This document shows, one piece after another, positions 4,367-56,493 of a stretch of DNA of 64,000 nt. Under the pieces are notes generated by a model that made no database searches, was not told the DNA's origin, and was given only the letters and a program-made list of their open reading frames with translations. The DNA is taken from the IMG/VR virus record IMGVR_UViG_3300024346_000017, positions 32,001 to 96,000 of that record. The stretch is one strand, 5' to 3'. Positions within the stretch are counted from its first letter, which is position 1. Every line of letters begins with the position of its first letter. Position numbers and translations under genes: made by a program. The stretch is from a virus.

Positions 4367-5215
4367 TTAATGTTCTTTAAATTCTCCCATGAATGCTTCA
4401 GAAAGCTCTTCGCCTTCTAATCCAGAAGCCTGGTACTTATTTATAAGATCTCTAGTAAATTGTGGATTTTCTTTTAGCGGTCTCATCCATGAACCAATAA
4501 ACTCTTTAAGGTCCTGAGTGTCTTTGTTTTTAATCTGCTCGTAATATTCTGGAGTCTTGTAGTTATAAAATGTTCCTGGGTTATCTTCTGCTTTTAGCAC
4601 AAAGTTTGAGAAAGCATATCTTCTTCCAGAAGTAACTGGCATTACTCCATGAGCATGTGGATTAAAAGCACCGTGTATAACAAGGTCGCCTCTTTCTGGC
4701 TTTATTGTCAGGGCATCTTCCCTTGCAACTGCATCGCTTTTATTTCCATCTTTATCAATGTTTACATAAAAAATTTCTCCGCCTTCAAAATCTCCAAAAT
4801 ATGCTACTAGGCCATAATCAAGCTCGCAGCATGTTTTCCATACATCTACCTGTGATAGTCTATGGCATTCTCCCTTTCCAGGAGAGTCGGAATGAGTAAA
4901 CATTCCCTCATTCATCTCTGGAACAATAACAAGAACATTTGCTTGTGGGTGCATTACATACTCTGGGTATAGCAATTCGCTGCCCTTTTCCCAAAGTGCA
5001 TGTAATTCCTTAAGTGGAGGGCTAACTTTGTTTGCATACCAGTTTATAAGAGTATCAGTATAGTTTCCGCTAAGATCATAATCTTTTAATGCATCTTCTA
5101 CCGTCTTGCACTCTTCGTCTGTATAAAATCCCTTGAATAGAAACACTCCGCTTGGAGTTCCATAATCATCTGGGAAAAATGATGCCCTGGTGCAATCTTC
5201 TCTGTCATAAAACAT
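4367..5215 (-). CDS. 2OG-Fe(II) oxygenase, prolyl 4-hydroxylase-like
   Basis: HSD...DFEGGEIF...KPERGDLVI...HGV...GRRY. Confidence 0.85.
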   Translation of the reverse strand: MFYDREDCTRASFFPDDYGTPSGVFLFKGFYTDEECKTVEDALKDYDLSGNYTDTLINWYANKVSPPLKELHALWEKGSELLYPEYVMHPQANVLVIVPEMNEGMFTHSDSPGKGECHRLSQVDVWKTCCELDYGLVAYFGDFEGGEIFYVNIDKDGNKSDAVAREDALTIKPERGDLVIHGAFNPHAHGVMPVTSGRRYAFSNFVLKAEDNPGTFYNYKTPEYYEQIKNKDTQDLKEFIGSWMRPLKENPQFTRDLINKYQASGLEGEELSEAFMGEFKEH

Positions 5216-13436: not shown

Positions 13437-15821
13437 ATGCCGCTAAATATTTTTGACGGTTCCAGCTGGAATCCTTTAAAAAAAGTACAGATTCATGATG
13501 GTACATCCTGGAATGAATCAAAAGCGGCATATATATGGGACGGATCAGAATGGAAATCACTTCTCGATTTAAAACCAAAAAACACTGAGTTACCAGCTTT
13601 ATCTTTACAAGAAGGAGTTTATCTTTATGCTGCCCAAGAAACAGTTTCTGTTTCTAATGGAATATGGGAAAACTCTCCAACATCATTTAAGTATCAATGG
13701 CAAAAATCCCCATTTAGCTCATCTAGTTACAACTGGTCTGATATAACAGGCAAGACATCAAATACCTTGCTTTTAGATGAAGACGAATGGAGCTCATCAA
13801 GAAACCTTAAATATGTTGGATATGTAGTAAGGTGTAAGGTAACTGCTACAAATGCTGCTGGAGATAATGATCCTGCAGTCTACACTATTCCTAGCCCAAT
13901 AATAGCTCCACAAAAACTTTCCGTTTTATCCGCTTCGGTTATTTCAAACGGAGTAGTAAAAATTGATTGGCAAAAGCCTATTGGAGCAAATGATTTTTAT
14001 ATACAGTATCAAGGACCAGAAGTTGCTTTTACAGAAACACAATCGCTTGGAGATGTTGATACTTTAACAATAGATACTGGAAGTTCTGGTGGAACTCTTG
14101 GAATCTTAATAAATCCAAAAAATAATTCAAACGCATCTGGAATGGCTCTTACTGGGCTTGGCAAAAATGCATCAATTAGTGATCTAAAACCAAATAAGCC
14201 TTACGTTACAACAACTATGGAATCATTCTCATGGGGAGGAAGGTTAAGATGGACCAACACTTTAATAAATCAAACATCGTGGGTAATATATAACAATGGG
14301 CAACTATACGCAAGTTCGTTTTTAAATGATCCGTCCGCTACCTCATTTGATATAGATAGGTTTGGAGAAGGAGGCTCAACCTTCGGATCATTTACAATTA
14401 CGGTTACTGGAACAGCTCCAAGATTTACAGAAACATCCTGGCCTTCAACACCACCGCTTTCTATAGTATATCCCGCAGTTCCTTTGCCAGTTAATCAAGT
14501 AGCTCCTACAGTATCTACTTCAAATGGAAGAGTATTTGCCTCAACTACTGGAACATGGTCAAACACATCTTCTATATATAGCTATCTTTATGAATGGTTT
14601 GCTAATGGTTCTCCAATAGACAGTGCATTTATTACTGAGTCAGATACTATAAATCTTTATGACACCACACAGTATGATAATATGTCAATAACTTCTGCTG
14701 TATATGTTTTAACAACAGACTTAAGAACAACTTCAGCAACAGCAAGCAGTAACTCTGCCCAATCAAATCCAGTTCCTCCCACAACATATACAATTCCAAA
14801 TTTGATTGGAACATATAATCCCTCTGATACAACTAACTATAATATTTCAAATGGCTCAACACTTGGCACTACTGATTATACAAAAGAGGGACAAGTTTAC
14901 ATGCAGTCTCCAGGAGCTGGTGCATCTGTAAGCACATCTCCAAAACCAACAATTACTGTATACAGATACGTTTACGAAGCTGCTCCTCAATACACTTATT
15001 ATGCAGGATATTCTGCATGTAATAACAATAATGGTGCCCCTTATATCCAAGAGCCATCTGTTAGCGGTCCGTATACAGGATCATCAATACCACAAGATAT
15101 TTCTACGGGCCCAAGCACATACAGAGAAGTTATTAGATACAGGACAACATCCGCAGCAGCTTTATCCGCAGCAGCACAAGCAGGATGTGAAACACCAGTC
15201 TTTGCACCACCAGCTTTTGCACCAGCACAATTTACAATTCCAAATTTAGTTGGATCATATAATCCTTCTAGTACATCAAGCTACAATATTTCAGTAGGTG
15301 CAGTAACTTCAACTGCAGACTATACAAAAGAGGGAATTGTTGCATCTCAATCTCCTACAGGAGGAACATCTGTAAATGCTTCTCCTATTCCTACAATTAC
15401 TGTATCAAAGTATTCTTATGTAGCTCCGCCGCCTGAACCAACTGTAACTTATTATCAGGGGTATTCTGCTTGCAATAACTTCTCTGGAGTTTATGCCTCT
15501 GCTCCATCTGTTAGTGGTCCATATACAGCATCATCAATGCCAACAGATGTTATTACTGGGCCAAGCTCAAACAGAGAAGTTCTTAAGTATAGATCAACAT
15601 CTGAAGCAGCTTTATCCGCAGCAGCACAAGCAGGATGTGAAACACCTTCCTTCGCACCACCAGTCTTCTTCGCACCACCAGTCTTCTTCGCACCACCAGT
15701 CTTCTTCGCACCACCAGTCTTCTTCGCACCACCAGTCTTCTTCGCACCACCAGTCTTCTTCGCACCACCAGTCTTCTTCGCACCACCAACATTTGGTTCT
15801 CGTTTCATAAGATCATATTGA
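13437..15821 (+). CDS. surface/virion protein: Ig-like domains, two PASTA-like repeats, C-terminal (FFAPPV)n and GSRFIRSY tag
   Basis: GIWENSPTSFKYQWQ...VTATNAAG Ig-like; TIPNL(I/V)G...QSP.(A/G)G.SV...TITV twice; C-terminal tandem repeat. Confidence 0.75.
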   Translation: MPLNIFDGSSWNPLKKVQIHDGTSWNESKAAYIWDGSEWKSLLDLKPKNTELPALSLQEGVYLYAAQETVSVSNGIWENSPTSFKYQWQKSPFSSSSYNWSDITGKTSNTLLLDEDEWSSSRNLKYVGYVVRCKVTATNAAGDNDPAVYTIPSPIIAPQKLSVLSASVISNGVVKIDWQKPIGANDFYIQYQGPEVAFTETQSLGDVDTLTIDTGSSGGTLGILINPKNNSNASGMALTGLGKNASISDLKPNKPYVTTTMESFSWGGRLRWTNTLINQTSWVIYNNGQLYASSFLNDPSATSFDIDRFGEGGSTFGSFTITVTGTAPRFTETSWPSTPPLSIVYPAVPLPVNQVAPTVSTSNGRVFASTTGTWSNTSSIYSYLYEWFANGSPIDSAFITESDTINLYDTTQYDNMSITSAVYVLTTDLRTTSATASSNSAQSNPVPPTTYTIPNLIGTYNPSDTTNYNISNGSTLGTTDYTKEGQVYMQSPGAGASVSTSPKPTITVYRYVYEAAPQYTYYAGYSACNNNNGAPYIQEPSVSGPYTGSSIPQDISTGPSTYREVIRYRTTSAAALSAAAQAGCETPVFAPPAFAPAQFTIPNLVGSYNPSSTSSYNISVGAVTSTADYTKEGIVASQSPTGGTSVNASPIPTITVSKYSYVAPPPEPTVTYYQGYSACNNFSGVYASAPSVSGPYTASSMPTDVITGPSSNREVLKYRSTSEAALSAAAQAGCETPSFAPPVFFAPPVFFAPPVFFAPPVFFAPPVFFAPPVFFAPPVFFAPPTFGSRFIRSY
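15651..15788 (+). repeat. perfect 18-bp coding tandem repeat (TTCGCACCACCAGTCTTC) x7 plus partial
   Basis: Seen directly; encodes FAPPVF units. Confidence 0.95.
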
Positions 15822-15831
15822 TGTATAATAT

Positions 15832-16029
15832 ATGAAAGAGACAAAACCATGGGACCTTTTAAATCCAAGCACTGAATTTGCTTCAGAATCTGTTCAAGAA
15901 GAAAGATATGTAATATGTCAAGCATGTCCAGAATTTATCGGATTGACTAAGCAATGCAGAAAATGCGGATGTTTAATGAAGTTAAAAACAAAAATTTTAG
16001 CATCAGAATGCCCATTACAAAAATGGTAA
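15832..16029 (+). CDS. small Cys-rich protein (DUF6171-like)
   Basis: R..ICxxC...CxxCGC...K......CPxxKW. Confidence 0.65.
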   Translation: MKETKPWDLLNPSTEFASESVQEERYVICQACPEFIGLTKQCRKCGCLMKLKTKILASECPLQKW

Positions 16030-16100
16030 ATTAGGATGGTTTATAAAGTTTTATAAGATATAATTAACTAAGTAACACGATTCACACAAGGGGGTAGCCA

Positions 16101-16658
16101 ATGGCCACCAGTTATCCAAATGCAATAGATCAACTTATTAATCCAAGCGGATCAGATGCATTATCAGCACCATCACATTCAGAACAGCATTCAAATGCAA
16201 ATGATGCAATAGAAGCATTACAAACAAAAGTTGGAACAGACGGATCTACAGATACAAATTCTATAACATATAAAATAAACGACATAGTTTCTATATTGGG
16301 AGATCTAGACAATAGCACAGACGCCGTCGTAGAACTTCTGGGACTAGAAGGCAACAATGATCTTTCTGTTTATGGAATTGAAAATCCAACTAACGTAGAC
16401 TCATTTGCAAAAGCTACTTGGAGAACAGTCAATTATAATCTTCAGGTAACAAAGGGAACAGATGTCTACACATCAGAAATCCTCGCTTCACATGATGGAA
16501 CAAACATAATGGTTTCAGAGTCAAACATCATCTCAAACTCAAACACAAGTCTATTTACTTATACCTTTGAAGAAAACTCAGGTATAATTAGTTTAAGAAT
16601 CACCCCTGTTTCTGGTTCTATTTCAGTTAGATTTTCAAGAACAGCGCTTAAAGCATAA
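16101..16658 (+). CDS. virion structural protein
   Basis: MATSYP..D...H..NDAIEALQTKVG N-terminus typical of fibre-module proteins. Confidence 0.6.
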   Translation: MATSYPNAIDQLINPSGSDALSAPSHSEQHSNANDAIEALQTKVGTDGSTDTNSITYKINDIVSILGDLDNSTDAVVELLGLEGNNDLSVYGIENPTNVDSFAKATWRTVNYNLQVTKGTDVYTSEILASHDGTNIMVSESNIISNSNTSLFTYTFEENSGIISLRITPVSGSISVRFSRTALKA

Positions 16659-16687
16659 CAAAAAAAGCAGTAAGAGGAGTCATATAA

Positions 16688-18250
16688 ATGGCAACAGTAA
16701 CAAAAAACTTTAGAATTAAATCTGGCCTCATTGTTGAAGGTACTTCGGGTACGATCAATGGCCAAAACATCCTTACAGAAACAGGTGGAGATAGTTATAT
16801 TCTCAATCTTGTTGGTGGCGCTACTCTTGTAAAATCAGTAGAAGCAACCCAACTTGAAGTAAGCGGAGCTGGAAAACTATCCGTAAAATCTGGCGTATTT
16901 GATGCAGCAGGTGCAGCAGCAGCAGCACAGTCTGCAGCAGAAGCAACTGCATCAGCAGATGCAAGCGCAAAAGCTAGCGCAGCACAATCAGCCGCAACAA
17001 CTGCAGCAGCAACTGACGCTACTACAAAGGTAGCCGCAGAAGCAGCCCTAAGAGTATCAGGCGATGCAGCTTCAGTTTCAACTGCAGCAGCTGACGCAAC
17101 ATCAAAGGCAGCAACTGCTAAGTCAGAAGCAATTTCTGCAGCAGCAACAGATGCAACAGACAAGGTAGCTGCAGAAGCTGCCCTCAGAGTATCAGGCGAC
17201 GCAGCTTCAGTTTCAACTGCAGCAGCTGACGCAACATCAAAGGCTAATGCAGCGCAAACAGCCGCTATCTCTGCAGCAGCAGCAGATGCTACTACAAAGG
17301 CAGACGCAGCAAAGGCTGGAGCAGAAGCAACAGCAGCAGCAGCACTAACATCTGCAATCTCAACAGAGGTTTCAAACCGTAATACAGCAATTGGAGCAGC
17401 AGTAGATTCATTAGTAGACGGTGCACCAGCACTTCTTAATACATTAAATGAATTGGCAGCAGCAATCAATGATGATGCTAACTACACAACAACACTAACA
17501 TCAGCACTTGCTCTCAAAGCTAACTCAGCAGATGTTACAACAGCAATTGCAACCGCTAAATCAGAATCAGCTACAGATGCAACAGACAAGGTAGCCGCAG
17601 AAGCAGCCCTAAGAGTATCAGGCGATGCAGCTTCAGTTTCAACTGCAGCAGCAGATGCAACATCTAAGGCTAACGCAGCTCAAGCAGCAGCTATTGCAGC
17701 AGCAGAAACTGACGCTACAACCAAAGCAGGCGCAGCTCAAGCAGCAGCTATTGCAGCAGCAGCAACTGACGCTACAACCAAAGCAGGCGCAGCTCAAGCA
17801 GCAGCTATTGCAGCAGCAGCAACTGACGCTACTACAAAGGCTAACGCAGCTCAAGCAGCAGCGGAAGCAACTGCAGCAGCAGCCAATACAGCACAGCAAG
17901 CTGGAACAACATCTTTCACAGCATTAAATGTTAACGACCAGGCTAAGCAAATTGCAGCCTCATCAACATCACTTGGATCAGTTATAGTAACTGCTTATGA
18001 GTGGCCAAAGGCAGACTACCGTTCAGGTAAGTTCCTTGTTAAGATTGATAATGCAACACACAATGAAATATCAGAAATTCTAGTAACACTAGACTCATCA
18101 GACAACGTAGCAATTACAGAATATGCAATTGTCGGAACTAATGGATCAAGAGGAACTATTACAGCAGATGTATCAGGATCAAATGTAAGAATAAGAGTAA
18201 ATCCAGTAAATGATTCAACAATCAAAGTATCTGGAACACTTGTTAAATAA
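16688..18250 (+). CDS. Ala-rich coiled-coil fibre protein
   Basis: ADATxKA repeats; GAPALLNTLNELAAAINDD module; strong RBS. Confidence 0.75.
   Translation: MATVTKNFRIKSGLIVEGTSGTINGQNILTETGGDSYILNLVGGATLVKSVEATQLEVSGAGKLSVKSGVFDAAGAAAAAQSAAEATASADASAKASAAQSAATTAAATDATTKVAAEAALRVSGDAASVSTAAADATSKAATAKSEAISAAATDATDKVAAEAALRVSGDAASVSTAAADATSKANAAQTAAISAAAADATTKADAAKAGAEATAAAALTSAISTEVSNRNTAIGAAVDSLVDGAPALLNTLNELAAAINDDANYTTTLTSALALKANSADVTTAIATAKSESATDATDKVAAEAALRVSGDAASVSTAAADATSKANAAQAAAIAAAETDATTKAGAAQAAAIAAAATDATTKAGAAQAAAIAAAATDATTKANAAQAAAEATAAAANTAQQAGTTSFTALNVNDQAKQIAASSTSLGSVIVTAYEWPKADYRSGKFLVKIDNATHNEISEILVTLDSSDNVAITEYAIVGTNGSRGTITADVSGSNVRIRVNPVNDSTIKVSGTLVK
17027..17860 (+). repeat. 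coding direct repeats in Ala-rich fibre gene
   Basis: ~80-bp block (KVAAEAALRVSGDAASVSTAAADATSKA) at ~17027, ~17162, ~17588; 60-bp tandem unit x3 at ~17676-17860. Confidence 0.85.
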
Positions 18251-18264
18251 TTAAATAAAGGTTT

Positions 18265-18289
18265 TGGGGGATTCCTTAAAAATCCCCCA
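18265..18289. terminator. intergenic stem-loop without a clear U-tract
   Basis: TGGGGGATT-ccttaaa-AATCCCCCA. Confidence 0.45.
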
Positions 18290-18320
18290 CAATAAACAAT
18301 TAGGGGATATGTGAACTTAA

Positions 18321-18683
18321 ATGGCAACAGTAGATAAGAACTTTAAAGTAAAGAATGGGTTAAATGTAGCAGGAACTGCAACGTTTGATTCTAATATCGT
18401 ATTAGGAACAGCCCCAATATCTTTTGATACAACAACAAAAAGGCTACAAGTCCAGATTGATGGATCTTGGCAGCCTATAGCTTTGTATTCAGAAATTCCA
18501 AATGAAAACACTATGCTTTCATTTATGGATGTAGGTTTGGCGATTGATTACAATGGCCAGCCAACATATATTATTCAGGCAAATGGAGTTACACCATCAG
18601 GAACAAGCAAGTATGTTTCTGGAGGAGACGCTTCAACTACTGAGTTTGGAATGACCTTTGATTCAGGAGCATTAGTAGCATGA
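18321..18683 (+). CDS. small structural protein; N-terminus related to 16688..18250
   Basis: MATVDKNFKVKNGL vs MATVTKNFRIKSGL. Confidence 0.65.
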   Translation: MATVDKNFKVKNGLNVAGTATFDSNIVLGTAPISFDTTTKRLQVQIDGSWQPIALYSEIPNENTMLSFMDVGLAIDYNGQPTYIIQANGVTPSGTSKYVSGGDASTTEFGMTFDSGALVA

Positions 18684-18744
18684 TGCTTAATTGTAATGGT
18701 TTAAATGCTATAATTTCAATATATCAAATAAAAGGGGTGGCATA

Positions 18745-21225
18745 ATGTCAACAGTAAGAATTCAAGTACGTAGAGGTTTAGCTTCAGAATGGACCGCAGC
18801 AAATCCAGTATTGGCTGCAGGTGAAATGGGTGTTGAAACAAACACTAATTTATTTAAGTTTGGTAACGGGTCTTCTACATGGACTGCCCTTGCATATGCC
18901 AACAACTCAGATGTAGCAATTGGTGAAATTTCCCAAGACGCTATCAACACAGCCCTTACAATGGGTGCAGGTTTAACAAAGACTTATAACGATGGAGCAA
19001 ATACAATAACTATAACTGTTGATACAGATGTAGTTTCAACAAGAGCATTTGCTACAACAGCAGCAGGGACTGCACAGACTGCAGCAGAAGCAACCGCAGC
19101 AGCAGATGCAAGCACAAAGGCTTCAGCAGCACAAGCTGCAGCAATTGCAGCAGCTTCAGCAGATGCAAGCGCAAAGGCTTCAGCAACTCTTGCTTCAGCA
19201 ACCGCAGCAGCAGCAGCATATACAGACTCTGCAGTAAATGGAGTAAATAACTCTCTTTCAGATTACCTAGAGGTAACAGAAAGAGGAGCAATGAATGGAG
19301 TTGCTTCCCTAGACGCAAATGTCAAGGTTCCACAAGCACAGCTTCCTTTAAATACTTTAACAACAAATATTAATACATCAGGAACAGTATCTGCAGCAAC
19401 AGTAATGGCAGAAGATGTAACTTCAAGCGGTGTAGTAACAGCAAACAATGTAACTATTAGTGGAAACCTAACTGTAAATGGAACAACCACATCAGTAAAT
19501 TCAACAAGCGTTACAATTGATGACCCAATGATTTATATTGGCGATGGCAATCAGTCAAACTCACTTGACCTTGGAGTTGTAGCAGCATTTAATGATGGCA
19601 CATACCAGCATGCAGGTCTTGTTCGTGATGCTTCAGATCAAGGAATCTGGAAACTATTCTCAGGAGTAACATCAGAGCCTGGCACAACAGTAGATTTCAC
19701 TACATATACAAAAGATAAGCTAGAACTAGGAACTTTGTATGCAGATGCAGCAAGAATTGGATCAGTTACAAATCTAGAAATTCAGCACCTAGGAGGAGTT
19801 ACTTCACCAATCCAGGCACAGCTTAATACCAAATTGGCTAGCGTACCTGATGATTCTGTTGGAACAGCTAAGATTCAAGCAGCTTCAGTAACTACTGCAA
19901 AAATTGCAGATGGTGCAATTGATACATCTAAAATTGCAGATGTTGCAGTAAGTACTGCAAAAATTGCAGATGGTGCAATTTTAACTGCAAAGCTTGCAGA
20001 TGCTTCTGTAACTTCAGCAAAAATTCCAGCAAACACAATTTCTCAATCACATCTAAATGATGACGCAGTAGGAACTGCAGAAATTGTTGCACTTGCAGTA
20101 ACTACCGAAAAGATTGCAGATGCTGCAGTAAGTACTGCAAAAATTGCAAATTCAGCAGTTACTACTTTAAAAATTGAAGATCTAGCAATCACAAATGAAA
20201 AGATTGCAACAGCAGCAGGAATAGCTCAGTCAAAGATTTCTGGATTAACTGAAGCCCTAGCTACAAAAGCAACAATTGATTCACCAACATTTACTGGTGC
20301 AGTTGTTCTTCCAGCAACAACAACAATCGGTCTAGTTGATGCAACTGAAATGGGATACTTAAATGGTGTTACATCTTCACTTCAAACACAGCTAACAGCC
20401 CTTGGAACAGCAGATTCAACACACGCAGCATTAACTGAAAATGTTCACGGCATTGCAAATACTGCAGCACTTGCAACAATGGCTTACGCTGATACAGCAG
20501 AAGCAGACGCAATTACAGCAGCAGGTACAGCAGCAGATTCAAAGATTGCAACTGCAGTAGCAGCACTTACAAAGTCTTCAGTAGGACTTGCAAATGTTGA
20601 TAATACAGCAGATGCATCAAAGCCAGTCTCTACAGCACAGGCTTCAGCAATCGCAACTGCTAAGTCAGAAGCAATTGCAGATGCAACTTCACAAGTAAAT
20701 GCATTACTAACAGGAGCTCCAGCAGCACTCAATACACTTGATGAGCTTGCAGCAGCACTCGGAGATGATGCAAACTTTGCAAGCACAGTTACTACTAGCT
20801 TAGCAGCTAAAGCACCAATTGCTTCACCAACATTTACTGGAACAGTAACAGTTGCAGCAGCAGGAGTAGCGTTTGCAGATAAGACTCAGACAAAGGCAGG
20901 CGTACCTTCTCTCACATCAATTGCCACAGCAGTTTCAGCAAGCACAACACTAGATGCGCTTGGAACAGATGCAGCAGTAAGAGATTCACTAGTTCCTCTA
21001 TCAGGAGCAGTAAACGTCAGCTTTGAAGCAACAGGAAATGCAAAGTATGAAATCGGTTCTTCAATCAGCTTCTACCAGTCAGCAGGAACTGGTGCTAATA
21101 TAACTGGATCTGGAGTTACAATTCTTGCGACACCAGGTGCAACATTAAGAACAACAAGTTCATCAGTAACAGCCACTAAGGTTGCAGCAACAACATGGTT
21201 GTTAGCTGGAGACCTAAGAGCATAA
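18745..21225 (+). CDS. tail fibre protein with Mtd-N-like N-terminus and decapeptide repeats
   Basis: IQVRRG...NPVLAAGEMGVET; AVSTAKIADG-type repeats; VGLANVDNTAD; GAPAALNTLDELAAALGDD; C-terminal WLLAGDL. Confidence 0.8.
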   Translation: MSTVRIQVRRGLASEWTAANPVLAAGEMGVETNTNLFKFGNGSSTWTALAYANNSDVAIGEISQDAINTALTMGAGLTKTYNDGANTITITVDTDVVSTRAFATTAAGTAQTAAEATAAADASTKASAAQAAAIAAASADASAKASATLASATAAAAAYTDSAVNGVNNSLSDYLEVTERGAMNGVASLDANVKVPQAQLPLNTLTTNINTSGTVSAATVMAEDVTSSGVVTANNVTISGNLTVNGTTTSVNSTSVTIDDPMIYIGDGNQSNSLDLGVVAAFNDGTYQHAGLVRDASDQGIWKLFSGVTSEPGTTVDFTTYTKDKLELGTLYADAARIGSVTNLEIQHLGGVTSPIQAQLNTKLASVPDDSVGTAKIQAASVTTAKIADGAIDTSKIADVAVSTAKIADGAILTAKLADASVTSAKIPANTISQSHLNDDAVGTAEIVALAVTTEKIADAAVSTAKIANSAVTTLKIEDLAITNEKIATAAGIAQSKISGLTEALATKATIDSPTFTGAVVLPATTTIGLVDATEMGYLNGVTSSLQTQLTALGTADSTHAALTENVHGIANTAALATMAYADTAEADAITAAGTAADSKIATAVAALTKSSVGLANVDNTADASKPVSTAQASAIATAKSEAIADATSQVNALLTGAPAALNTLDELAAALGDDANFASTVTTSLAAKAPIASPTFTGTVTVAAAGVAFADKTQTKAGVPSLTSIATAVSASTTLDALGTDAAVRDSLVPLSGAVNVSFEATGNAKYEIGSSISFYQSAGTGANITGSGVTILATPGATLRTTSSSVTATKVAATTWLLAGDLRA

Positions 21226-21245
21226 TTGGAAAATAGGAGAATAAA

Positions 21246-22079
21246 ATGTCAAAAAATATAGGTAATAAAGCCGCCGCACAAGACAACTTCATTGGACCAA
21301 ATGCTCCAACTGGCTTAACTGCAACAAATGTTGGAGCTAACAGAGCATTTAACGATGGGCGTATTGATCTAGCATGGGTTGCACCAACTGGAGCAAATAC
21401 TCCAACATCATATAAGATTATGCGTGGTGGAGCAGAAATTGCAACAGTTTCTCACCCTACAGTAACTTATTCAAATACTGGACTAACATCAGCCACACTT
21501 TACTCTTATACAGTAAGAGCAGCAGATGCTTATGGAACTTCAGCCGATTCAAACGCTGCAACAGCAACAGCAACAACAGTTCCTTCTGCTCCAACAAGTG
21601 CATCTGCAACAGCAGGAGTTAATGCAAACACAGTTCAGTGGGCAGCGCCAGCAACTGGTGGAACTGCAATCACAAACTACTATGTTGTTGGAAATGATGC
21701 AACAACTGGAAATACTACTGGTTTATCTGTATCAATTGCAGATTCTGCAAATACATCTCAATACTATAACGTATATGCAGACAATGCTAATGGAAGATCA
21801 GCTGCATCAAATAACACTAATACTGTTACTACACTTGCACCTACTTTCTTCGCACCACCGTTTTTCCCACCATTCTTTCCACCAAGCTTCTTCGCCCCAC
21901 CAGGGTTCTTTGCCCCACCAAGCTTCTTTGCACCGCCAGTGTTCTTTGCCCCACCAGGGTTCTTTGCACCGCCAGTGTTCTTTGCCCCACCAGGGTTCTT
22001 TGCACCGCCAGTGTTCTTTGCGCCACCAAGCTTCTTTGCGCCACCAACATTTGGCTCACGTTTTATCAGATCGTATTAA
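21246..22079 (+). CDS. fibronectin type III protein with C-terminal (FFAPPx)n repeats and GSRFIRSY tag
   Basis: PNAPTGL...W.AP...Y...YSYTVRA and PSAPTS...WAAPATGG...Y FN3 signatures; Phe/Pro tail. Confidence 0.8.
   Translation: MSKNIGNKAAAQDNFIGPNAPTGLTATNVGANRAFNDGRIDLAWVAPTGANTPTSYKIMRGGAEIATVSHPTVTYSNTGLTSATLYSYTVRAADAYGTSADSNAATATATTVPSAPTSASATAGVNANTVQWAAPATGGTAITNYYVVGNDATTGNTTGLSVSIADSANTSQYYNVYADNANGRSAASNNTNTVTTLAPTFFAPPFFPPFFPPSFFAPPGFFAPPSFFAPPVFFAPPGFFAPPVFFAPPGFFAPPVFFAPPSFFAPPTFGSRFIRSY
21846..22046 (+). repeat. degenerate 18-bp (36-bp higher-order) coding repeat
   Basis: TTCTTTGC(A/C/G)CC(A/G)CCA units encoding FFAPP(G/S/V). Confidence 0.9.
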
Positions 22080-22090
22080 TAATATACAAA

Positions 22091-22120
22091 ACAATAGCAA
22101 GGGGCAACCCTTGCTATTGT
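22091..22120 (+). terminator. stem-loop terminator
   Basis: ACAATAGCAAGGG-GCAA-CCCTTGCTATTGT, 13-bp perfect stem. Confidence 0.7.
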
Positions 22121-22151
22121 GCTATATAAATATAAATGATACAATTTGTAT

Positions 22152-22856
22152 ATGACAAATATAAATGAATCTTTTAGCTTTTCTTCTAAAGAACAGCTTT
22201 TCCCAGGCGTATGGGTTTACAGAAATGTAATTAAGAACGACCTTGATATTATTAATAGGCTCAATGAAATTGGCGAATCTGCCATAAGCGAGAACGATAC
22301 AAGATACGCATGGACGTTTGGCTTTGTTGGGTATAGCGAAAAAAGACCATCATACAGAGACTGTGAAGACATTAAAGTCGGAGAAATTAAAAACCCTAGA
22401 TCTAAAACAGAGCAATTAGTTTCTAGTTTGTGGACAGATTTAAAAAAATCACAGTCCCCAGCTGTTGAAGACTATTGCGGAATGTATAATGTAAAAATGG
22501 ATTACTGGGAAGTAATGAACTGCATCAAATATGGAAAGGGACAACATTTCCAAGAGCATGCAGACCATGGGTTCTCTTATAGCGCTACAGTTTCATTAGT
22601 TGCATACGTAAACGACGACTATGAAGGCGGAAACTTATATTTCCCTAAGCTTAATCTAGATATTAAGCCAAAAGCTGGAGACCTATATATATTCCCATCA
22701 ACATATTTATTTTCACACAGGGCAATGCCAGTTGATTCTGGAATGAAGGTTTCAATTGTAACTATGCTAGATTATAATGATCATGCTCATAGACAAGAGT
22801 TTATGCAGATGAGAGCTAACTGGTTAGAGCAAGACGCACAAGCTGGCAAGAACTAA
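22152..22856 (+). CDS. 2OG-Fe(II) oxygenase, prolyl hydroxylase-like
   Basis: HAD...NDDYEGG...KPKAGD..IFPS...HRA...K; ATG 6 nt after TGATACAAT. Confidence 0.88.
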   Translation: MTNINESFSFSSKEQLFPGVWVYRNVIKNDLDIINRLNEIGESAISENDTRYAWTFGFVGYSEKRPSYRDCEDIKVGEIKNPRSKTEQLVSSLWTDLKKSQSPAVEDYCGMYNVKMDYWEVMNCIKYGKGQHFQEHADHGFSYSATVSLVAYVNDDYEGGNLYFPKLNLDIKPKAGDLYIFPSTYLFSHRAMPVDSGMKVSIVTMLDYNDHAHRQEFMQMRANWLEQDAQAGKN

Positions 22857-22857
22857 A

Positions 22858-23580
22858 ATGTATAATATAGAGGCATACTTTGTTAGAGAAGGGTTTGGCC
22901 AAGTTAGCCCTCTATCAGTAAAGAGAGACTGGATGGATCAAACATTTGACGCACATGCCTATAAGTGTTTCCCAGTCAGCCTAACTAATCAATTGGGTTG
23001 GGGTATATCTTTTCCAGAAGACATATCATTTATTTGGGATGGAATTACAGATAGCAGTCCAGATCATGTAAAAATATTGTCTGGAGAAAAATATGCATAT
23101 GCTGGTAGAGCAAATGCAACAATCAGCTTTAATACTGGAATAATGTTTAAGACTGACGAAAACTCAACTTTAATGTCTATGCCTGTACCCAATCTTTTTA
23201 TTGATGGCGCAACCCCTTTTACTACATTAATCAGTACATCTTTTTATAGAGGAGAGCTACCAGCAGCCTGGATGATAACAAAAGCAAATGAAGTTATAAC
23301 CATTAAAGCTGGAACCCCAGTAATATCAGTAATGCCAATAAATTTAGATTCAATTAATAACTCAGAGATGCAGTTTAAAGAATTATCATCTCTCCCAGAG
23401 CCTTTGTTTGACTCTACAGAATATTCTAATGTTATATATGACTTAAATAGAACCGCAACATGGTCCAATTTTTATAGAGATGCAGTAGATCATTTAAAGA
23501 GAAAAATTGGATCTCACCAAGTAAAGGCAATAAGACTAAAAACAAATAATGATATAATGAATAAAGGAGGAAGCAAATGA
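22858..23580 (+). CDS. DUF6065-like protein
   Basis: RDWMD...HAYKCFPVSLTNQLGW motif; recognised from memory. Confidence 0.6.
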   Translation: MYNIEAYFVREGFGQVSPLSVKRDWMDQTFDAHAYKCFPVSLTNQLGWGISFPEDISFIWDGITDSSPDHVKILSGEKYAYAGRANATISFNTGIMFKTDENSTLMSMPVPNLFIDGATPFTTLISTSFYRGELPAAWMITKANEVITIKAGTPVISVMPINLDSINNSEMQFKELSSLPEPLFDSTEYSNVIYDLNRTATWSNFYRDAVDHLKRKIGSHQVKAIRLKTNNDIMNKGGSK

Positions 23581-24251
23581 AACCATCAAACGACTGGGGC
23601 AATAATGCTCCTATATCTATAACCCCCTCTGGCTTTTTTGGAAACTCTTCTTCCAATATTATAGAAATTAAAGACTTCCTTTCTTTGGCGGAAAGAGAAA
23701 GACTTATGGACTTTGCTTTAAACAATAAAATTTGGGATATAACAGAAACTCATCGTGATGCAGACGGACTAGTTTTATATGATCATAAAATTTGGGAAGA
23801 CAGAGTATGTACTTATAACTCTCTTATGGCATCCGATCCAGGCATACTTGAGCTTATCTACAGTATGATCGATAGATTAAAAATAGAAGTAGATGCATTT
23901 TTTAGTGTAGATGCAAAAGAAACTGGTCCAGCAATTGTTCGTTGGCCTGTTGGCGCAAGACAAGAACCCCATGCAGATAAAGAATTTCATGCTGGTCCAG
24001 AAAAAGGAAGGGCTAACGATTTCCCATGGTATGATTTAGCTGGATTATTTTATTTTAACGATGACTATGAAGGAGGAGAACTTTATTTCCCTCAGCATGG
24101 CATTGAGTTTAAACCAGTTGCAGGAGCAGCATATTTTTTCCCAGGCGATATGAATTATACGCATGGAGTCCGCCCAGTAAAGTCTGGGAATAGGTTTACA
24201 TCACCATTTTTTTGGACTATAAAAAAACATACAGGAGAAAAACAGCCATGA
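23577..24251 (+). CDS. 2OG-Fe(II) oxygenase, prolyl hydroxylase-like
   Basis: HAD...NDDYEGGELYF...HGV...R. Confidence 0.88.
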   Translation: MKPSNDWGNNAPISITPSGFFGNSSSNIIEIKDFLSLAERERLMDFALNNKIWDITETHRDADGLVLYDHKIWEDRVCTYNSLMASDPGILELIYSMIDRLKIEVDAFFSVDAKETGPAIVRWPVGARQEPHADKEFHAGPEKGRANDFPWYDLAGLFYFNDDYEGGELYFPQHGIEFKPVAGAAYFFPGDMNYTHGVRPVKSGNRFTSPFFWTIKKHTGEKQP

Positions 24252-25066
24252 GTAAATTAGAATATGTAGAGCTTTATCCAAAAGTAGATATCTATAGAAA
24301 TGTTTTAAAAGACCCAAACCAGCTATATGCAGTAATGAATGAATCTGAAAAGACATCAGAAGGAAAGTACTTTTTAAAAACATGGGATCCGTGGGCGCAC
24401 TTTGGAACATACACACAAAAAAAGGACCCAAGAGAAGTTTCTGCTGAAATTCAAAAAGAAGAGATGTTTATTAAAGAAAAACAATTTGTTGAAGAAGTTG
24501 AAGAAGCTTACAACAAGGTTGTATTAGATTATGTAGAAAGACACGGCATTGATTTGCCAGACGGATGGCATTTTAGTGGTTGCTCCTATTCAAAATATCA
24601 CGCAAACATTGATACGCTAAATAATAGCATGACAATGCAATATCATACAGACCATATAACCTCTCAAAAAGATATGCCTGGAGATAAGTTTTCTATAACA
24701 TGTACCATGTACATTAATGATGATTATGAAGGCGGAGACATTGAGTTTTATGTTGATGGAAATCTTATTAATCACAAGCCTCAAGCAGGAGACATTTTGG
24801 TTTTTCCATCTACAGAGCCATATTTTCATGGAGTAAAAACAATTAACACTAATGAAAAATTCTTTGTCAGAAACTTTATTATGACTCCACACAATGGCAC
24901 AGAAGAATGGCTTGCGAATCAAAGAAAATTTGGTGCTTACAGATGGGCAAAAATGGAACAAGAAAGAATAGACCACGACGATAAAAGAAATATGGTTTAT
25001 TTTGCAGACGGCAAGCCTATATCATACGAAGACTATATGAGCACAAACAAGGGCAAAGGTAAATAA
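24248..25066 (+). CDS. 2OG-Fe(II) oxygenase, prolyl hydroxylase-like
   Basis: HTD...NDDYEGG...FPS...HGV...K; start revised to ATGA overlap at 24248. Confidence 0.88.
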   Translation: MSKLEYVELYPKVDIYRNVLKDPNQLYAVMNESEKTSEGKYFLKTWDPWAHFGTYTQKKDPREVSAEIQKEEMFIKEKQFVEEVEEAYNKVVLDYVERHGIDLPDGWHFSGCSYSKYHANIDTLNNSMTMQYHTDHITSQKDMPGDKFSITCTMYINDDYEGGDIEFYVDGNLINHKPQAGDILVFPSTEPYFHGVKTINTNEKFFVRNFIMTPHNGTEEWLANQRKFGAYRWAKMEQERIDHDDKRNMVYFADGKPISYEDYMSTNKGKGK

Positions 25067-25067
25067 C

Positions 25068-25820
25068 ATGGAAAGAAATATGATTATAACTAGACACAAG
25101 CCAGATATCGTACAGTATGATAATTTTTTAACTCCAGATGAGTGTAAATCTATCATAGATGTTTTGGCCATCAAAATGGAAAAGGATCAACTTAGATGGA
25201 TGCCAATTTCATTTTATGAATCATATTCATCTGGAACCCCAGAGCTAAATGATCCAGATACAATTGCTTCTGGTCTTCCAGGAGATTTTTTTCAAGACTT
25301 AAGACAGAGAGTTATAAACGCAACTGCAGATATGGCTGGTAAATCTCCAGAACAAATGTCTCAAATAAGCTGGCACTCTCAAAGATGGGCACCAGGAGCA
25401 TTTGCAAATATGCATTCTGATAACACATCTAATGATGGTGTATCTGGTGCATTTACTAGAAGCAGATATGCAACATTCCTTTATTTAAATGACGACTTTG
25501 AAGATGGTGTTTTAAACTTTAAACATGGGCTTACAATTGTTCCTAAGACGGGAACCCTTGTAACTTTTGCTGGAGGATTTGATAACATGCATGAGGTTAC
25601 AACTGTCAAAAAGTCTATTCGATATACCCTTGGTTCATTTTGGGACGATAGAGAAGAAAGCGATTATCCGCAAGAAGTAAGAGATGCTTGGGCGGAAGAG
25701 CTTGCAAAAGTCAGAGCAATTCAAAAAGATGAGGCAGCAGAATGGGAAGATTATAGAAAAAGAGGAGTAAGAATAACTCCACGAGGAGAACAATACCCAG
25801 CTTCTGAAGTGGAAGGCTAA
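25068..25820 (+). CDS. 2OG-Fe(II) oxygenase, prolyl hydroxylase-like
   Basis: DNFLTPDEC; HSD...YLNDDFEDG...HEV...RY. Confidence 0.88.
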   Translation: MERNMIITRHKPDIVQYDNFLTPDECKSIIDVLAIKMEKDQLRWMPISFYESYSSGTPELNDPDTIASGLPGDFFQDLRQRVINATADMAGKSPEQMSQISWHSQRWAPGAFANMHSDNTSNDGVSGAFTRSRYATFLYLNDDFEDGVLNFKHGLTIVPKTGTLVTFAGGFDNMHEVTTVKKSIRYTLGSFWDDREESDYPQEVRDAWAEELAKVRAIQKDEAAEWEDYRKRGVRITPRGEQYPASEVEG

Positions 25821-25821
25821 T

Positions 25822-26472
25822 ATGCAAAACGATGTTGATTTTAAACAATTTACAATGTTTAACGTACACGCACTAGACCCAAATATTTGGTATTGGGAAA
25901 ATGTTCTTAGCTATCCAAAAGAATTAAATAGCTTTATAGAAGAAATAGATTCTATTCCAGAATCATATTCAAGAATTTCAAAATGGGAAAACTGGTCTGC
26001 AAGTAATGATGAGTCTTTAATTTATGGCGCAACAAAAAATATATTTAGATCTAAGCTAAAAGAAACTACTGGCTCTGACGCAGTTGATAAAAAAACATTG
26101 TACATTGCAAACAGCTTTATCATGGCAGCTGAAATGTGCTCAGATAGGTATTTTGCGAGTCACGGATTAGATAAAAATAATTACAATTTAGAAATAAATC
26201 AAATTCCAATTAAAAAATGGAATCAAGGACAATCAATGGGCCCACACTTTGATGGTCAAGATGGAAATAAAGACTTAGCCTTCTCTCTTGTAACTTATAT
26301 AAATGACGACTACGAAGGTGGAGAAATTCATTTTCCAAATCAAAATGTTACGTTAAAGCCAGCAGCTGGAAGCTTAATAATGTTTCCATCTCAAGAGCCA
26401 TATATCCACGAAGTAAAACCTATTATTTCTGGAACAAGATACATGAGTCCAGCACACGTATATATTAAATAG
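25822..26472 (+). CDS. 2OG-Fe(II) oxygenase, prolyl hydroxylase-like
   Basis: HFD...NDDYEGGEI...FPS...HEV...RY. Confidence 0.88.
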   Translation: MQNDVDFKQFTMFNVHALDPNIWYWENVLSYPKELNSFIEEIDSIPESYSRISKWENWSASNDESLIYGATKNIFRSKLKETTGSDAVDKKTLYIANSFIMAAEMCSDRYFASHGLDKNNYNLEINQIPIKKWNQGQSMGPHFDGQDGNKDLAFSLVTYINDDYEGGEIHFPNQNVTLKPAAGSLIMFPSQEPYIHEVKPIISGTRYMSPAHVYIK

Positions 26473-26492: not shown

Positions 26493-27605
26493 ATGAGCAC
26501 AACAGGCAAGGGCTTTAGATACCCAGTATACACAGACACCCCAGACGTACCCAGAGACCTCGGATACCTTGCTGCTGACGTAGATGCCTACCTAGATGCT
26601 CATCCAGGCCCACAAGGGCCTTCAGGAACCCTATCAGTAGGCTCTGTAACTACAGTTAGCGCTTCTACTCCAGCATCTGTTGTTAATGTTGGAACAGCAT
26701 CAGCAGCTATATTAAATCTAACTTTACCAAGAGGTATTGATGGAATTATTGGTGGTCCAGGCCCTTCTAATGTATTAAGCATTGGAACAGTAGAGCAAGG
26801 CGGATCTGCCTCAGCAACAATTACTGGCACATCACCAACACAGACATTAAATTTAGTTTTGCCACAAGGGCCCGCTGGCCCAACTGGACCGCAGGGGCCG
26901 CAGGGCCCAACTACTTTAGCAGTAGGAACTACCACCACTAGTTTGCCTGGAACAAATGCATCAGTAACAAATACTGGAACTTCAACAGCAGCAGTATTTG
27001 CATTTACAATTCCAAGAGGCGCAACTGGAGCAACTGGAGCAACAGGCCCGCAAGGAATTCCTGGATCAAGCGCAACAATAGATCCAGTACCAACTACAAT
27101 ATCTTTAAATATCCCAACTACGGCAGGGTATGGAGTAAATTCAAACTGGTACCCACTTGCAAATAATTTATACTCTATTGGACAACCAATCGATGCTCCA
27201 TCAGGAGTAACTTCAAATAGATTTTGGAAAACAATATATTCTAATACTGGAACAATAAATACATCTGATCAAAGATTAAAAACAGATGTTATTAATTCTG
27301 CTCTAGGACTTGATTTTATAAATAATTTAAATCCAGTAAGCTATAAGTTTATTGAAGGCGGAAAAGAAGTCGTTGATGGAGATTTAGTTTCTATACCTGG
27401 ATCAAGAACGCATTACGGACTTATTGCACAAGAAGTAAAAGAGGTTTTAGATGCATCTGGCGTAGAAGATTTTGCTGGATGGGTTAAGATGGATGTATCA
27501 CAAGAAGATTCTATGCAAGGCCTAAGATACGATCAATTCATTGCACCACTTATTAAAGCAGTACAAGAGCTTACAGCGAGAGTTAAAGCCCTAGAAGAGA
27601 TTTAA
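26493..27605 (+). CDS. collagen-like tail fibre with C-terminal intramolecular chaperone (peptidase S74-like)
   Basis: Short Gly-X-Y runs (GPAGPTGPQGPQGP; GATGATGATGPQGIPG); TSDQRLK...YGLIAQEV...coiled coil. Confidence 0.85.
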   Translation: MSTTGKGFRYPVYTDTPDVPRDLGYLAADVDAYLDAHPGPQGPSGTLSVGSVTTVSASTPASVVNVGTASAAILNLTLPRGIDGIIGGPGPSNVLSIGTVEQGGSASATITGTSPTQTLNLVLPQGPAGPTGPQGPQGPTTLAVGTTTTSLPGTNASVTNTGTSTAAVFAFTIPRGATGATGATGPQGIPGSSATIDPVPTTISLNIPTTAGYGVNSNWYPLANNLYSIGQPIDAPSGVTSNRFWKTIYSNTGTINTSDQRLKTDVINSALGLDFINNLNPVSYKFIEGGKEVVDGDLVSIPGSRTHYGLIAQEVKEVLDASGVEDFAGWVKMDVSQEDSMQGLRYDQFIAPLIKAVQELTARVKALEEI

Positions 27606-27608
27606 GAC

Positions 27609-29411
27609 ATGTCATATAAATATACTGTCTTAAAAGATAACCCAGTTGCATTTTTCTTATTGGATGAAGTTCGTTCTGGCGAAGCTGGTGTATACAGTAA
27701 TTTAACTACATTATATCCAACATATCAAGCTTTAAAAGATAACGGTGTTTCATATGCCGCAGTAAGCGGGCTGCCAATAATTGATTACACTGGAAACTCC
27801 ATGGAGGGGTATGCAATTAATACTTCAGCCATGGAAGTTCTTCCTATTATTGGGGCGGGGGTAAGAGGAACAGAGATAAATGAAGATGCACAGATAAGCC
27901 TAAAAGCCCTAGGACTTGGTATGAATAGAAATCCAGACGGTCCATTCGCATTTGAAATATGGTTTAGTCCAGCTAAAGATGACAACTCAGAATATCTTAT
28001 TATGGGAGATGCAGAAAATTCAATTGGCCTATTCTATAAAAATGAAAACATTATTTTTAAATGTAGTCCAACACAGATGGTTTGGCATAAGATTACAAAA
28101 AATAAAGCCATGCATGTTGTAGGTATGTTTTCTAAAGATACAATTTCACTTTATGTTGATGGCAAAATTGTTTCTGAAAGTCCAGTTGCCGATAGCTTTA
28201 AATTTAATAATACAAGCTTAAACCTATCCTTGGGACCAGCCAACGCAGGCAAAAAATTTATTGTTGATTCAGCAGCAATTTATGCCTATGAGCTAGAAGA
28301 AGCAAAAATATTAAATCATTATCTGTCTGGATACAAAGAGACAAAGTACTCACAAATTGTTTATTCAAATAATGGAATTCTTTTTTCATTAAACTCGGCC
28401 TCAGTAAGACCAGACATTTCATATAGGTATCCTGGAATAAAAGCACTAGAAGAGCTTGCCTCTGGAGATGCCTATTATAATTCAGAGTATAGCAGAATTG
28501 AGTTTGAAGAAACAGATGCCGTGGAAACAAAAACATTTTCTTTTCAAGAAAGATTGTATGTATCAAATCCAGAAGATATTGTTTCTTCTAGAATTTGCTA
28601 TGGGCAGGATGTAGACAATATTGTGGTTGAAATACAAATCCCAAATCAGCCATGGGTAGTTTGCAAAAATAATTCTCCAATGCCATACTACAACAAAAAC
28701 CAGAACTCAGGAAGCCCAATATTAGATATAAGGGTAACAATGACGACACAGGATTCATCCTTCGACCTACCTTACTTTGATAAGCTAGAAATTGATATGT
28801 ATTCAAATAAAGATTTTTATGCAGATAATTCTGGATCAAAAATATACTCAGCATACGACTATGAAGTAGGACAATATAATTACCCAGTAAGAATGCAAAA
28901 TAAATACAACGGACTTTCAATGTATTCTGGCCATGGGTTTTCTGTAGATCTTTCTATTCAGCCAAGAACAATAGAGATGTTTTTTACTCCAAGGGGTGGA
29001 CAAAATGTATTATTTTCTTCAGCATCCTCATCAATTAAATGGGCGGCAAACGGAGTAATAACAAAAGCTGGCATTTCTGCTATATACGTAAATGGTATAA
29101 ATAGGACATCAGAGACTAATGTATCCACATTCTTGCTAAATGATGTTGCCCACCATATTGTAATTGTATTAAGTCAGTCAGCCCTAAATATTAAGTTTAA
29201 TCAAAATCAATTAGATACGGAGTATGGAACTTCAAATCTATACAATAATATAGCTTTTTATGAGAAGGCATTTACCTCCGCAGAAGCAATAAATAACTAC
29301 AGGCTCTACTGCTCAGATAACTCAAAGGTTGTTACTGACCCAGGAGTGACTATATCTGAAAGTGCCCAAGGTCAGGACGGAACCTCATACTTCATAAGGT
29401 TATTTGACTAG
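27609..29411 (+). CDS. structural protein with LamG/ConA-like domain
   Basis: FAFEIW...HVVG...LYVDGK...AIY pattern; VLKDNPVAF N-terminus. Confidence 0.65.
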   Translation: MSYKYTVLKDNPVAFFLLDEVRSGEAGVYSNLTTLYPTYQALKDNGVSYAAVSGLPIIDYTGNSMEGYAINTSAMEVLPIIGAGVRGTEINEDAQISLKALGLGMNRNPDGPFAFEIWFSPAKDDNSEYLIMGDAENSIGLFYKNENIIFKCSPTQMVWHKITKNKAMHVVGMFSKDTISLYVDGKIVSESPVADSFKFNNTSLNLSLGPANAGKKFIVDSAAIYAYELEEAKILNHYLSGYKETKYSQIVYSNNGILFSLNSASVRPDISYRYPGIKALEELASGDAYYNSEYSRIEFEETDAVETKTFSFQERLYVSNPEDIVSSRICYGQDVDNIVVEIQIPNQPWVVCKNNSPMPYYNKNQNSGSPILDIRVTMTTQDSSFDLPYFDKLEIDMYSNKDFYADNSGSKIYSAYDYEVGQYNYPVRMQNKYNGLSMYSGHGFSVDLSIQPRTIEMFFTPRGGQNVLFSSASSSIKWAANGVITKAGISAIYVNGINRTSETNVSTFLLNDVAHHIVIVLSQSALNIKFNQNQLDTEYGTSNLYNNIAFYEKAFTSAEAINNYRLYCSDNSKVVTDPGVTISESAQGQDGTSYFIRLFD

Positions 29412-55838: not shown

Positions 55839-55985
55839 ATGGATAAAGCAGAATTAGTAATTAGCGCACTGCAGCAAAGAATTGGCGAGCTTGTCTCAAA
55901 TTATGAGACGCACATTGCTATTCTTCGTGCAGAAATAACACAGCTTCAGCAGGCACAAATGTCTGAGGAGCCAGAGGAGAAATAA
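55839..55985 (+). CDS. 48-aa coiled-coil protein
   Basis: Read manually: MDKAELVISALQQRIGELVSNYE...; RBS AAGGAG. Confidence 0.75.
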   Translation: MDKAELVISALQQRIGELVSNYETHIAILRAEITQLQQAQMSEEPEEK

Positions 55986-55986
55986 A

Positions 55987-56400: not shown

Positions 56401-56410
56401 CAAATAAGTA

Positions 56411-56438
56411 TTGACAATATAGCACATAATGCTACAAT
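56411..56438 (+). promoter_or_regulatory. sigma70-type promoter of replication module
   Basis: TTGACA-N16-(TGC)TACAAT. Confidence 0.6.
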
Positions 56439-56493
56439 TTGATGTAGCGCTAAGGCCATGAATATTCATGGCCTATTAACATTAGGGTAAATA

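Follow-up and report, generated by a model that had tools for sequence, protein, structure and literature searches.

We show that the 15-residue C-terminal peptide common to two tail-region proteins of an uncultured phage is just the final part of a larger module, in which a tandem array of Phe/Pro hexapeptides is closed by a short end-piece. Across a family of related loci, the array is linked to genes for prolyl-4-hydroxylase (P4H)-like oxygenases, the endings that follow it are interchangeable between lineages, the two array proteins of one genome generally carry matching endings, and the peptide is under selection. The window studied here is the whole 64,000-nucleotide stretch at positions 32,001 to 96,000 of IMG/VR virus record IMGVR_UViG_3300024346_000017, and coordinates refer to it unless stated otherwise. 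The module and its two carriers comprise the following features.

15774 to 15821, plus strand: tag copy 1, FFAPPT (the last array unit), then FGSRFIRSY and a TGA stop
22032 to 22079, plus strand: tag copy 2, FFAPPT, then FGSRFIRSY and a TAA stop
13437 to 15821, plus strand: 794-residue tail-region protein (BIG), with a conserved N-terminus, two PASTA-like/Cys modules, an (FFAPPV)n array and the end-piece
15650 to 15788, plus strand: array 1, in the 794-residue protein, an 18-bp unit for FFAPPV present in 7.7 copies without mismatch (Tandem Repeats Finder, 100% matches)
21246 to 22079, plus strand: 277-residue protein, with a conserved 18-residue N-terminal peptide, two FN3 domains, an (FFAPPx)n array and the end-piece
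21846 to 22046, plus strand: array 2, in the 277-residue protein, about 10 diverged FFAPPx/FFPP units (x is G, S, V or T) with a 36-bp higher-order unit

As the first-pass annotation had reported, both open reading frames (ORFs), at 13437-15821 and 21246-22079, exist and end in the same 15 residues, FFAPPTFGSRFIRSY. Within the window, a degenerate DNA pattern covering tag residues 1-8 has just two matches, at 15774 and 22032, and it has none in 100 shuffles; a pattern for the last 9 residues matches twice across the full 113,108-bp viral record of which the window is part. When all ORF ends of the window were checked, no further C-terminus of the form [RK]-x-[YF] was found. Codon comparison upholds the claim that the copies differ only silently: 7 of 45 coding bases differ, in 7 codons and always synonymously, and the stops are TGA and TAA. 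The chance that seven random substitutions would all be silent is about 1e-5 (200,000 trials). The description of the carriers as otherwise different proteins stands only outside their last 60-80 residues, where both carry an FFAPPx array. Tag residues 1-6, FFAPPT, are the final unit of this array, and the end-piece FGSRFIRSY is the sole unique part of the tag. What the two proteins share at the C-terminus is thus a module of 60-80 residues, not 15, which consists of an aromatic-aromatic-small-Pro-Pro-x tandem array plus a short end-piece (x-F-G-S-R-F-I-R-S-Y-COOH).

The two carriers reach this module by different routes. The 794-residue protein contains an internal duplication (15155-15260 and 15605-15665) of a PASTA-like, Cys-containing segment ending in ..AAQAGCETP, with the first copy followed only by FAPPAFAPAQ and the second by the full array; its PASTA profile match lies slightly below the cut-off. 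Every unit of this array is PPV save the last, which is PPT. In the 277-residue protein, the array begins at 21846 at the protein level and the DNA repeat called by Tandem Repeats Finder at 21879 (9.3 diverged copies, 21879-22046). PPG is found in 3 of 9 consecutive FFAPPx units of this protein, and PP-G is the commonest unit in many relatives. The FN3 assignment is secure (PF00041, E 2.3e-7, above cut-off), and an AlphaFold2 (AF2) monomer model shows two beta-sandwich FN3 domains with pLDDT >90 followed by an unstructured array and tail, whose pLDDT of 43-50 allows no docking onto the FN3 domains to be read. A homotrimer prediction (three copies, alignment A2) scored 0.00, a result that counts neither for nor against. 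Searches with array plus tail gave no match in the PDB and no usable match in the ESM Atlas. The long alternative-frame ORFs that overlie the arrays (15491-15925 and 21841-22059 on the minus strand, 15493-15810 and 21526-22155 on the plus strand, with GGAKKT, SSHHQ and similar repeats) are by-products of the repeats, not genes.

Just downstream of the 277-residue gene lies an operon in which a DUF6065 gene stands between the first and second of five oxygenase genes.

22146 to 22856, plus strand: OXY1, a P4H-like 2-oxoglutarate (2OG)-Fe(II) oxygenase (PF13640, E 4.5e-13) that keeps HxD..H..K
22858 to 23580, plus strand: DUF6065 protein (PF19541, E 1.6e-28), the constant partner of OXY1
23577 to 26472, plus strand: OXY2 to OXY5, four divergent P4H-like oxygenases (OXY2, PF13640, E 1e-7), all with HxD..H..R/K

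All five oxygenases belong to the P4H-like family by their PF13640 matches (the four further ones at genome coordinates 55952-58445), their HxD...H iron triad and their basic 2OG-binding residue, and the top PDB matches of OXY1 are the collagen P4H structures 3ITQ and 5HV0 of Bacillus anthracis (E 3e-7). For DUF6065, the AF2 model (pLDDT 90) matches dUTPases in Foldseek (E 3e-4, TMt 0.6-0.7), and we confidently predict a dUTPase-like beta-barrel fold.

Over 190 related contigs of IMG/VR have arrays of this kind. More than 117 contigs match FFAPPxFFAPP, and a DUF6065-seeded scan of IMG/VR recovered 198 loci. Their conserved gene order is fibre, array protein, OXY1, DUF6065, OXY2-5, sometimes a collagen-like gene, a lectin-like 600-residue gene and portal. 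The linkage between array and DUF6065 was assessed in the 54 loci of the unbiased, DUF6065-seeded set with enough upstream DNA: an FF.PP array protein lies directly upstream in 46, six others have variant (F/H/Y)FPP arrays, one has its array further upstream, and the remaining locus has an upstream FN3 plus bacterial-intein-like (BIL) protein in which no array of at least four units was detected. OXY1 and DUF6065 are 60-100% identical within this set and about 30% identical in the most distant clade, where array proteins of 130-150 residues end in xFK and the array, although the locus is rearranged, still adjoins OXY1 and DUF6065. Of the 22 distant loci that span OXY5 to the 600-residue gene, 14 lack the collagen-like gene yet retain array and oxygenases. 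It is thus the array that constantly accompanies the oxygenases, and because it tracks them throughout the family while the collagen-like gene is often lost, it is the best candidate for their substrate; the collagen-like fibre is a possible second one.

Several loci depart from the common arrangement. In a sister clade (L213, L216, L218, L220-L222), the repeat has a period of four, (F/H/Y)-F-P-P with His or Tyr in first position, and still ends in ..PPRFGFRY; the same loci have an extra 135-residue gene between the array protein and OXY1. In L033, L048 and L101, the array protein has a second, N-terminal array preceded by a poly-Pro stretch, so arrays are not confined to C-termini. Locus L012 (7777-10341, minus strand) encodes a small protein in which a short N-terminus is followed by 13 FF(A/S/G)PPx units and then by a Peptidase_S74 chaperone. 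This gene is flanked by a P4H-like gene and a homologue of Skp1-type Hyp-GlcNAc-transferase (Gnt1-like, PF11397, E 5e-20), neighbours that hint at a hydroxylation-plus-glycosylation pathway acting on the array. PF11397 was not detected in the window's genome, a weak negative in that control genomes gave no match either.

No such array turned up in 50,697 isolate phage records. Neither DUF6065 nor the 794-residue protein has a match among these records either, a database in which no DNA match was found and in which the 277-residue protein matched through its FN3 part only. In cellular genomes, the array pattern matched 38 times; in 37 cases, nearly all from metagenome-assembled genomes, it was a lone chance match. 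A triple match in Novosphingobium was rejected, as the ORF translation looks like an out-of-frame reading. This pattern scan of cellular genomes revealed no host or prophage.

Past the array, every array protein continues x-F and then takes one of many endings. Tails of the R-x-Y type include TFGSRFIRSY, ..RAY, TFGGGFIRIY, YFGSRFIRYY, RFGGGGLRFY, RFGFTGLRAY, GFSNF(I/S)RSY, LFRSIRAY, RFGGHRFY and RFGFRY; other short endings are GFGAPGVFAV, GFWD, GFTVYSI and xFK, and Cys-rich knots also occur. The commonest ending, found in 50 of 84 non-redundant lineages, is a terminal domain of 155-200 residues whose first residue is Cys (or Ser), within a C-[IL]-x-x-x-T motif, and whose end is often V-H-N plus 1-5 residues. 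A profile built from 39 of these long endings has 2LWY as its best PDB match (E 4e-7), followed by mini-inteins, and 27 of the 39 match Pfam Intein_splicing; by sequence, they are classed as BIL/Hint domains. Such domains occur only in relatives, the tails of the two window proteins being 10 residues long with no Hint match. On a quick DUF6065 tree, the R-x-Y ending calls for four or more changes and falls among BIL clades, and it is found behind both FFAPPx and (F/H/Y)FPP arrays.

This variety of endings bears on the suggestion, made in the first-pass annotation, that the tag is an enzyme-recruiting follower peptide, a tail that docks its substrate on an oxygenase, DUF6065 or the nearby Cys-rich DUF6171 protein for modification of the array. 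The tail does adjoin the oxygenase operon, both candidate substrates carry it, and the peptide is under purifying selection. However, it is the array, not the tail, that tracks the enzymes: OXY1 and DUF6065 are conserved in every lineage while unrelated peptides or whole autoprocessing domains, of BIL or S74 type, replace the tail. Since two unrelated domains of self-removing types and many short peptides share one slot beside conserved OXY1 and DUF6065, the tail is unlikely to be a docking signal for the enzymes. Additionally, Pfam and NCBIfam searches found no peptide-recognition domain in the neighbour proteins. These comparisons do not support the suggestion, and we regard it as very improbable. 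Another idea of the first-pass annotation, a protease site, finds a parallel only in relatives, which have domains of self-cleaving types in precisely the place of the tail.

The L012 protein, the only one with Peptidase_S74 as its ending (neither tagged window protein has an S74 match), raises a different possibility, namely that the end-piece is a folding or registration nucleus from which Phe/Pro arrays oligomerise from the C-terminus, possibly as mixed rods, with matched tails permitting co-assembly; in trimeric fibres, this task falls to Peptidase_S74 as an intramolecular chaperone. In L012, S74 directly follows the array, the same layout as in the window's collagen-like fibre, where G-X-Y runs are followed by S74; moreover, all endings begin with x-F, completing half a repeat, and endings match within genomes, as described below. 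Against these parallels, only one of more than 100 loci has S74 in this place, oligomerisation is not known for BIL domains, and nine residues would be very short for a trimerisation knot. Nor is strict collagen-like packing compatible with the period of four in the (FFPP)n variants or with an x that can be L, R or D. We consider a role as nucleus unlikely.

Endings are shared within genomes and differ between them, which confirms the prediction of the first-pass annotation. Among the 25 genomes in which both array proteins are readable, 22 carry the same kind of ending on both; these endings comprise several BIL subtypes and five short-tail variants. In 12 of the 13 short-tail pairs, the last 8 residues or more are identical (SY in two genomes, AY in two, GGGFIRIY in two, GFGAPGVFAV in four and RFGFRY in two). 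BIL domains are present on both proteins in nine genomes and are always of the same subtype, different subtypes being only 27-40% identical.

The nucleotide record of these pairs supports selection on the peptide, as proposed from the window alone. Paralogue tails differ synonymously at 7 positions in the window, 10 in L159, 6 in L051, 3 in L158 and 2 in L164 (the counts for L159, L158 and L164 include the stop codon), and at 3 each in a GFGAPGVFAV pair and an RFGFRY pair; all seven pairs have zero replacements within the end-piece. Paralogue-specific silent markers (TTC/TTT, TCT/TCA and ATA/ATC) are kept across SY and AY genomes, so homogenisation must be rare. SY and AY lineages differ by a single Ser/Ala change in both genes, to which a TAT/TAC change is linked. 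The closest relative, L158, has the codons and stop of the FN3 gene in the tail of its big protein, which by sequence is a clear gene-conversion patch; the earlier argument against a recent copy event therefore holds for the window's genome and fails in L158. Matching is thus kept by purifying selection on the peptide together with occasional gene conversion, presumably seeded by the near-identical array DNA. A new ending can spread to the second gene only through a rare event whose 3' boundary is non-homologous, from which we infer that matching itself is favoured. Stable inside sub-lineages and replaced between them, the tail behaves as a specificity element.

The origin of the short tail may lie in the BIL domains. 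In the nearest BIL clade, a subtype found in L189, L196 and L197, the junction reads ..PPRFG and then C, and the terminus is ..SFIIRN-stop. An internal deletion in a domain of this type would give RFG-SFIIRN, near TFG-SRFIRSY, and is a possible source of the tail. This resemblance, the conversion patch of L158 and the existence of minimal xFK tails also fit an explanation in which the tail is a vestige under generic constraints: the remnant of an internal BIL deletion (N-junction plus last strand) that avoids a Pro-Pro-stop or bare hydrophobic end, with its identity in two genes a by-product of gene conversion. We find a mere vestige quite improbable, given that the paralogue tails of several genomes combine zero replacements with dozens of synonymous differences, that persistent paralogue-specific synonymous markers point to rare homogenisation, and that the R-x-Y ending recurs in at least four clades.

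A separate BIL subclade (L011, L015, L037, L044, L055-L057, L091, L212, L226 and L228) ends in V-V-H-N plus a short flank. The flanks are LKMF, LKMY, VKMF, LKAF, RKAF, IKRF, GKVY, YKIF and RKLFA, and KKGFA of L047 fits less well. Their pattern, hydrophobic-basic-x-aromatic, is like that of I-R-S-Y, and if the BIL domain splices or leaves the flank, the mature end would resemble the window tail, a similarity that we treat as a lead.

Our overall reading, which we hold tentatively and rate somewhat short of probable, is that the Phe/Pro array forms a P4H-modified rod and that the end-piece is a lineage-specific distal cap that gives both proteins a common partner. In homologue alignments of the carriers, conservation is highest at the N-terminus of BIG and over the first 18 residues of the FN3 protein. 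Because fibre proteins are held to the virion by conserved N-termini of this kind, these would be the virion-attached ends, with the module at the distal C-terminal end. The adjacent P4H-like oxygenases would hydroxylate Pro in the PP-G/S/V/T of the array, yielding a modified Phe/Pro rod whose free C-terminus is defined by the end-piece. That the two proteins carry one and the same end-piece would reflect a partner common to their tips, be it a host-surface component or a site on the virion. Endings are drawn from an interchangeable set that in relatives includes BIL and S74 domains, which are of self-cleaving types, and the end-piece is unlikely to serve as the recognition signal of the enzymes.

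Several points weigh against this cap-and-rod reading. AF2 yields no structure for array or tail, and a 9-residue peptide would be an unusual receptor-contact element. Matching is not obligatory: in L213, a BIL domain is paired with RFGFRY; in L187 and L192, the array of the big protein is internal and followed by a Cys-rich domain, so there is no match; and in L007, the thirteenth short-tail pair, RSY and RAY tails differ in sequence. Across the whole R-x-Y clade, the ratio of nonsynonymous to synonymous polymorphism (pN/pS) is 0.46 for the tail, not below the 0.40 of the FN3 body, so constraint acts within sub-lineages only. Oxygenase adjacency is less specific than it appears, given the 12 PF13640 genes of the genome, and all loci belong to one phage lineage, in which conserved synteny may partly reflect inheritance. 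Finally, hydroxylation, a binding partner and the location on the virion are all predicted from sequence.

A bolder variant, in which we place very little confidence, would make the C-terminus of the hydroxylated rod a working one. BIL-bearing relatives would ligate the rod covalently via a thioester to their own flank, a virion protein or a host cell-wall amine, and R-x-Y would be a BIL-derived, non-covalent substitute that binds the same partner. If true, it would represent new chemistry for phage attachment or assembly.

Both tagged genes belong to a block of Mtd_N-type fibre genes, and the genes for portal, protease and major capsid protein lie downstream of this block. In addition to those listed above, the neighbourhood includes the following features.

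15832 to 16029, plus strand: Cys-rich DUF6171 protein of 65 residues (Pfam PF19668, E 8e-7)
22091 to 22120: hairpin with a 13-bp stem, just 3' of the FN3-array gene and 5' of the oxygenase operon
26493 to 27605, plus strand: collagen-like tail-fibre protein with three short G-X-Y runs and a C-terminal Peptidase_S74 (PF13884, E 7e-15)
27609 to 29411: conserved 600-residue protein upstream of the portal, with a Laminin_G_3/ConA-like lectin domain (E 1e-12)

The DUF6171 gene lies directly 3' of the BIG homologue wherever one locus contains both. The 600-residue protein is probably structural rather than a terminase, in view of its lectin-like domain. An NCBIfam search of the neighbour proteins returned nothing informative. 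The PF13640 genes of the 113-kb genome include those at 22146-26472, one at 4367-5215 on the minus strand and a second cluster outside the window, at genome coordinates 14991-19268. Between the head genes and, further downstream, the minor tail protein genes, a 3020-residue ORF (38735-47797) probably encodes a tape-measure-type protein. The portal is 55-58% identical to those of large Streptomyces siphoviruses, and the genome, with a G+C content of 38%, encodes a WhiB protein. The Streptomyces-siphovirus-like portal and the WhiB gene make an actinobacterial host probable, and the G+C content points to one of a low-GC freshwater type.

The nearest known kinds are viral P4H enzymes acting with Pro-rich repeat proteins and the removable C-terminal elements of phage fibres. 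The P4H of Chlorella virus PBCV-1 acts on viral Pro-Ala-Pro-Lys repeats (PMC3634087), and the window shares with that system a virus-encoded P4H-like 2OG oxygenase and proteins with short tandem Pro-rich repeats as presumed substrates. In contrast to the PAPK repeat of this algal virus, the repeat described here is a phage FFAPPx, and the window has five adjacent paralogous oxygenases (12 in the genome), DUF6065 and an end-piece that has no PBCV-1 counterpart. Like Peptidase_S74 in phage fibres, the end-piece stands at the extreme C-terminus of a repetitive fibre, the position that S74 takes in L012 and in the window's collagen-like fibre; yet with 9-10 residues, no S74 domain and no Ser-Lys dyad, the window tail has nothing to cleave. 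BIL domains cleave at their own ends and sit in hypervariable regions of non-conserved proteins (Amitai 2003, Dassa 2004, reviewed in PMC7765530). Most relatives have such a domain, likewise in a hypervariable region, with an N-terminal Cys/Ser and often a C-terminal His-Asn, right after the array, where the window has its tail. The two window proteins lack it, and cleavage, splicing to the C-flank of 1-5 residues or chain transfer are candidate activities in the relatives.

Short C-terminal peptides that are common to unrelated proteins and conserved as peptides are also known from LPXTG, PEP-CTERM and outer membrane protein (OMP) beta-signals, PDZ ligands and the followers of ribosomally synthesized and post-translationally modified peptides (RiPPs). 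The tag differs from all of them in having no defining motif and in being carried by large structural phage proteins. The ..TFGSRFIRSY tail has no LPXTG, PEP or hydrophobic span, and its hydrophobic residues are at 0, -3 and -4 instead of the 0, -2 and -4 of an OMP beta-signal. RiPP leader- or follower-directed modification was likewise rejected, the carriers being proteins of 277 and 794 residues with folded domains and their neighbours having no match to a RiPP recognition element (RRE) or to PqqD. No cognate sortase, RRE or PDZ protein was found near the tagged genes. In the literature searched, 'FFAPP' returned only unrelated acronyms and no description of an FFAPP-type array, and neither a function for DUF6065 nor a Hint/BIL domain on a phage FN3, tail-fibre or tail-region protein was found.

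Our findings identify an undescribed and widespread module of uncultured freshwater-type phages, in which tail-region proteins end in a Phe/Pro hexapeptide array tied to a battery of prolyl-hydroxylase-like genes, with endings that range from a 9-residue peptide to an intein-like domain. Aquatic phages have many unexplained 2OG oxygenases, for which the array provides a concrete substrate candidate, and the relatives supply a set of phage BIL domains with directly testable chemistry. The paired tails offer a natural experiment in which two genes of one genome keep a short peptide in step via selection and gene conversion.

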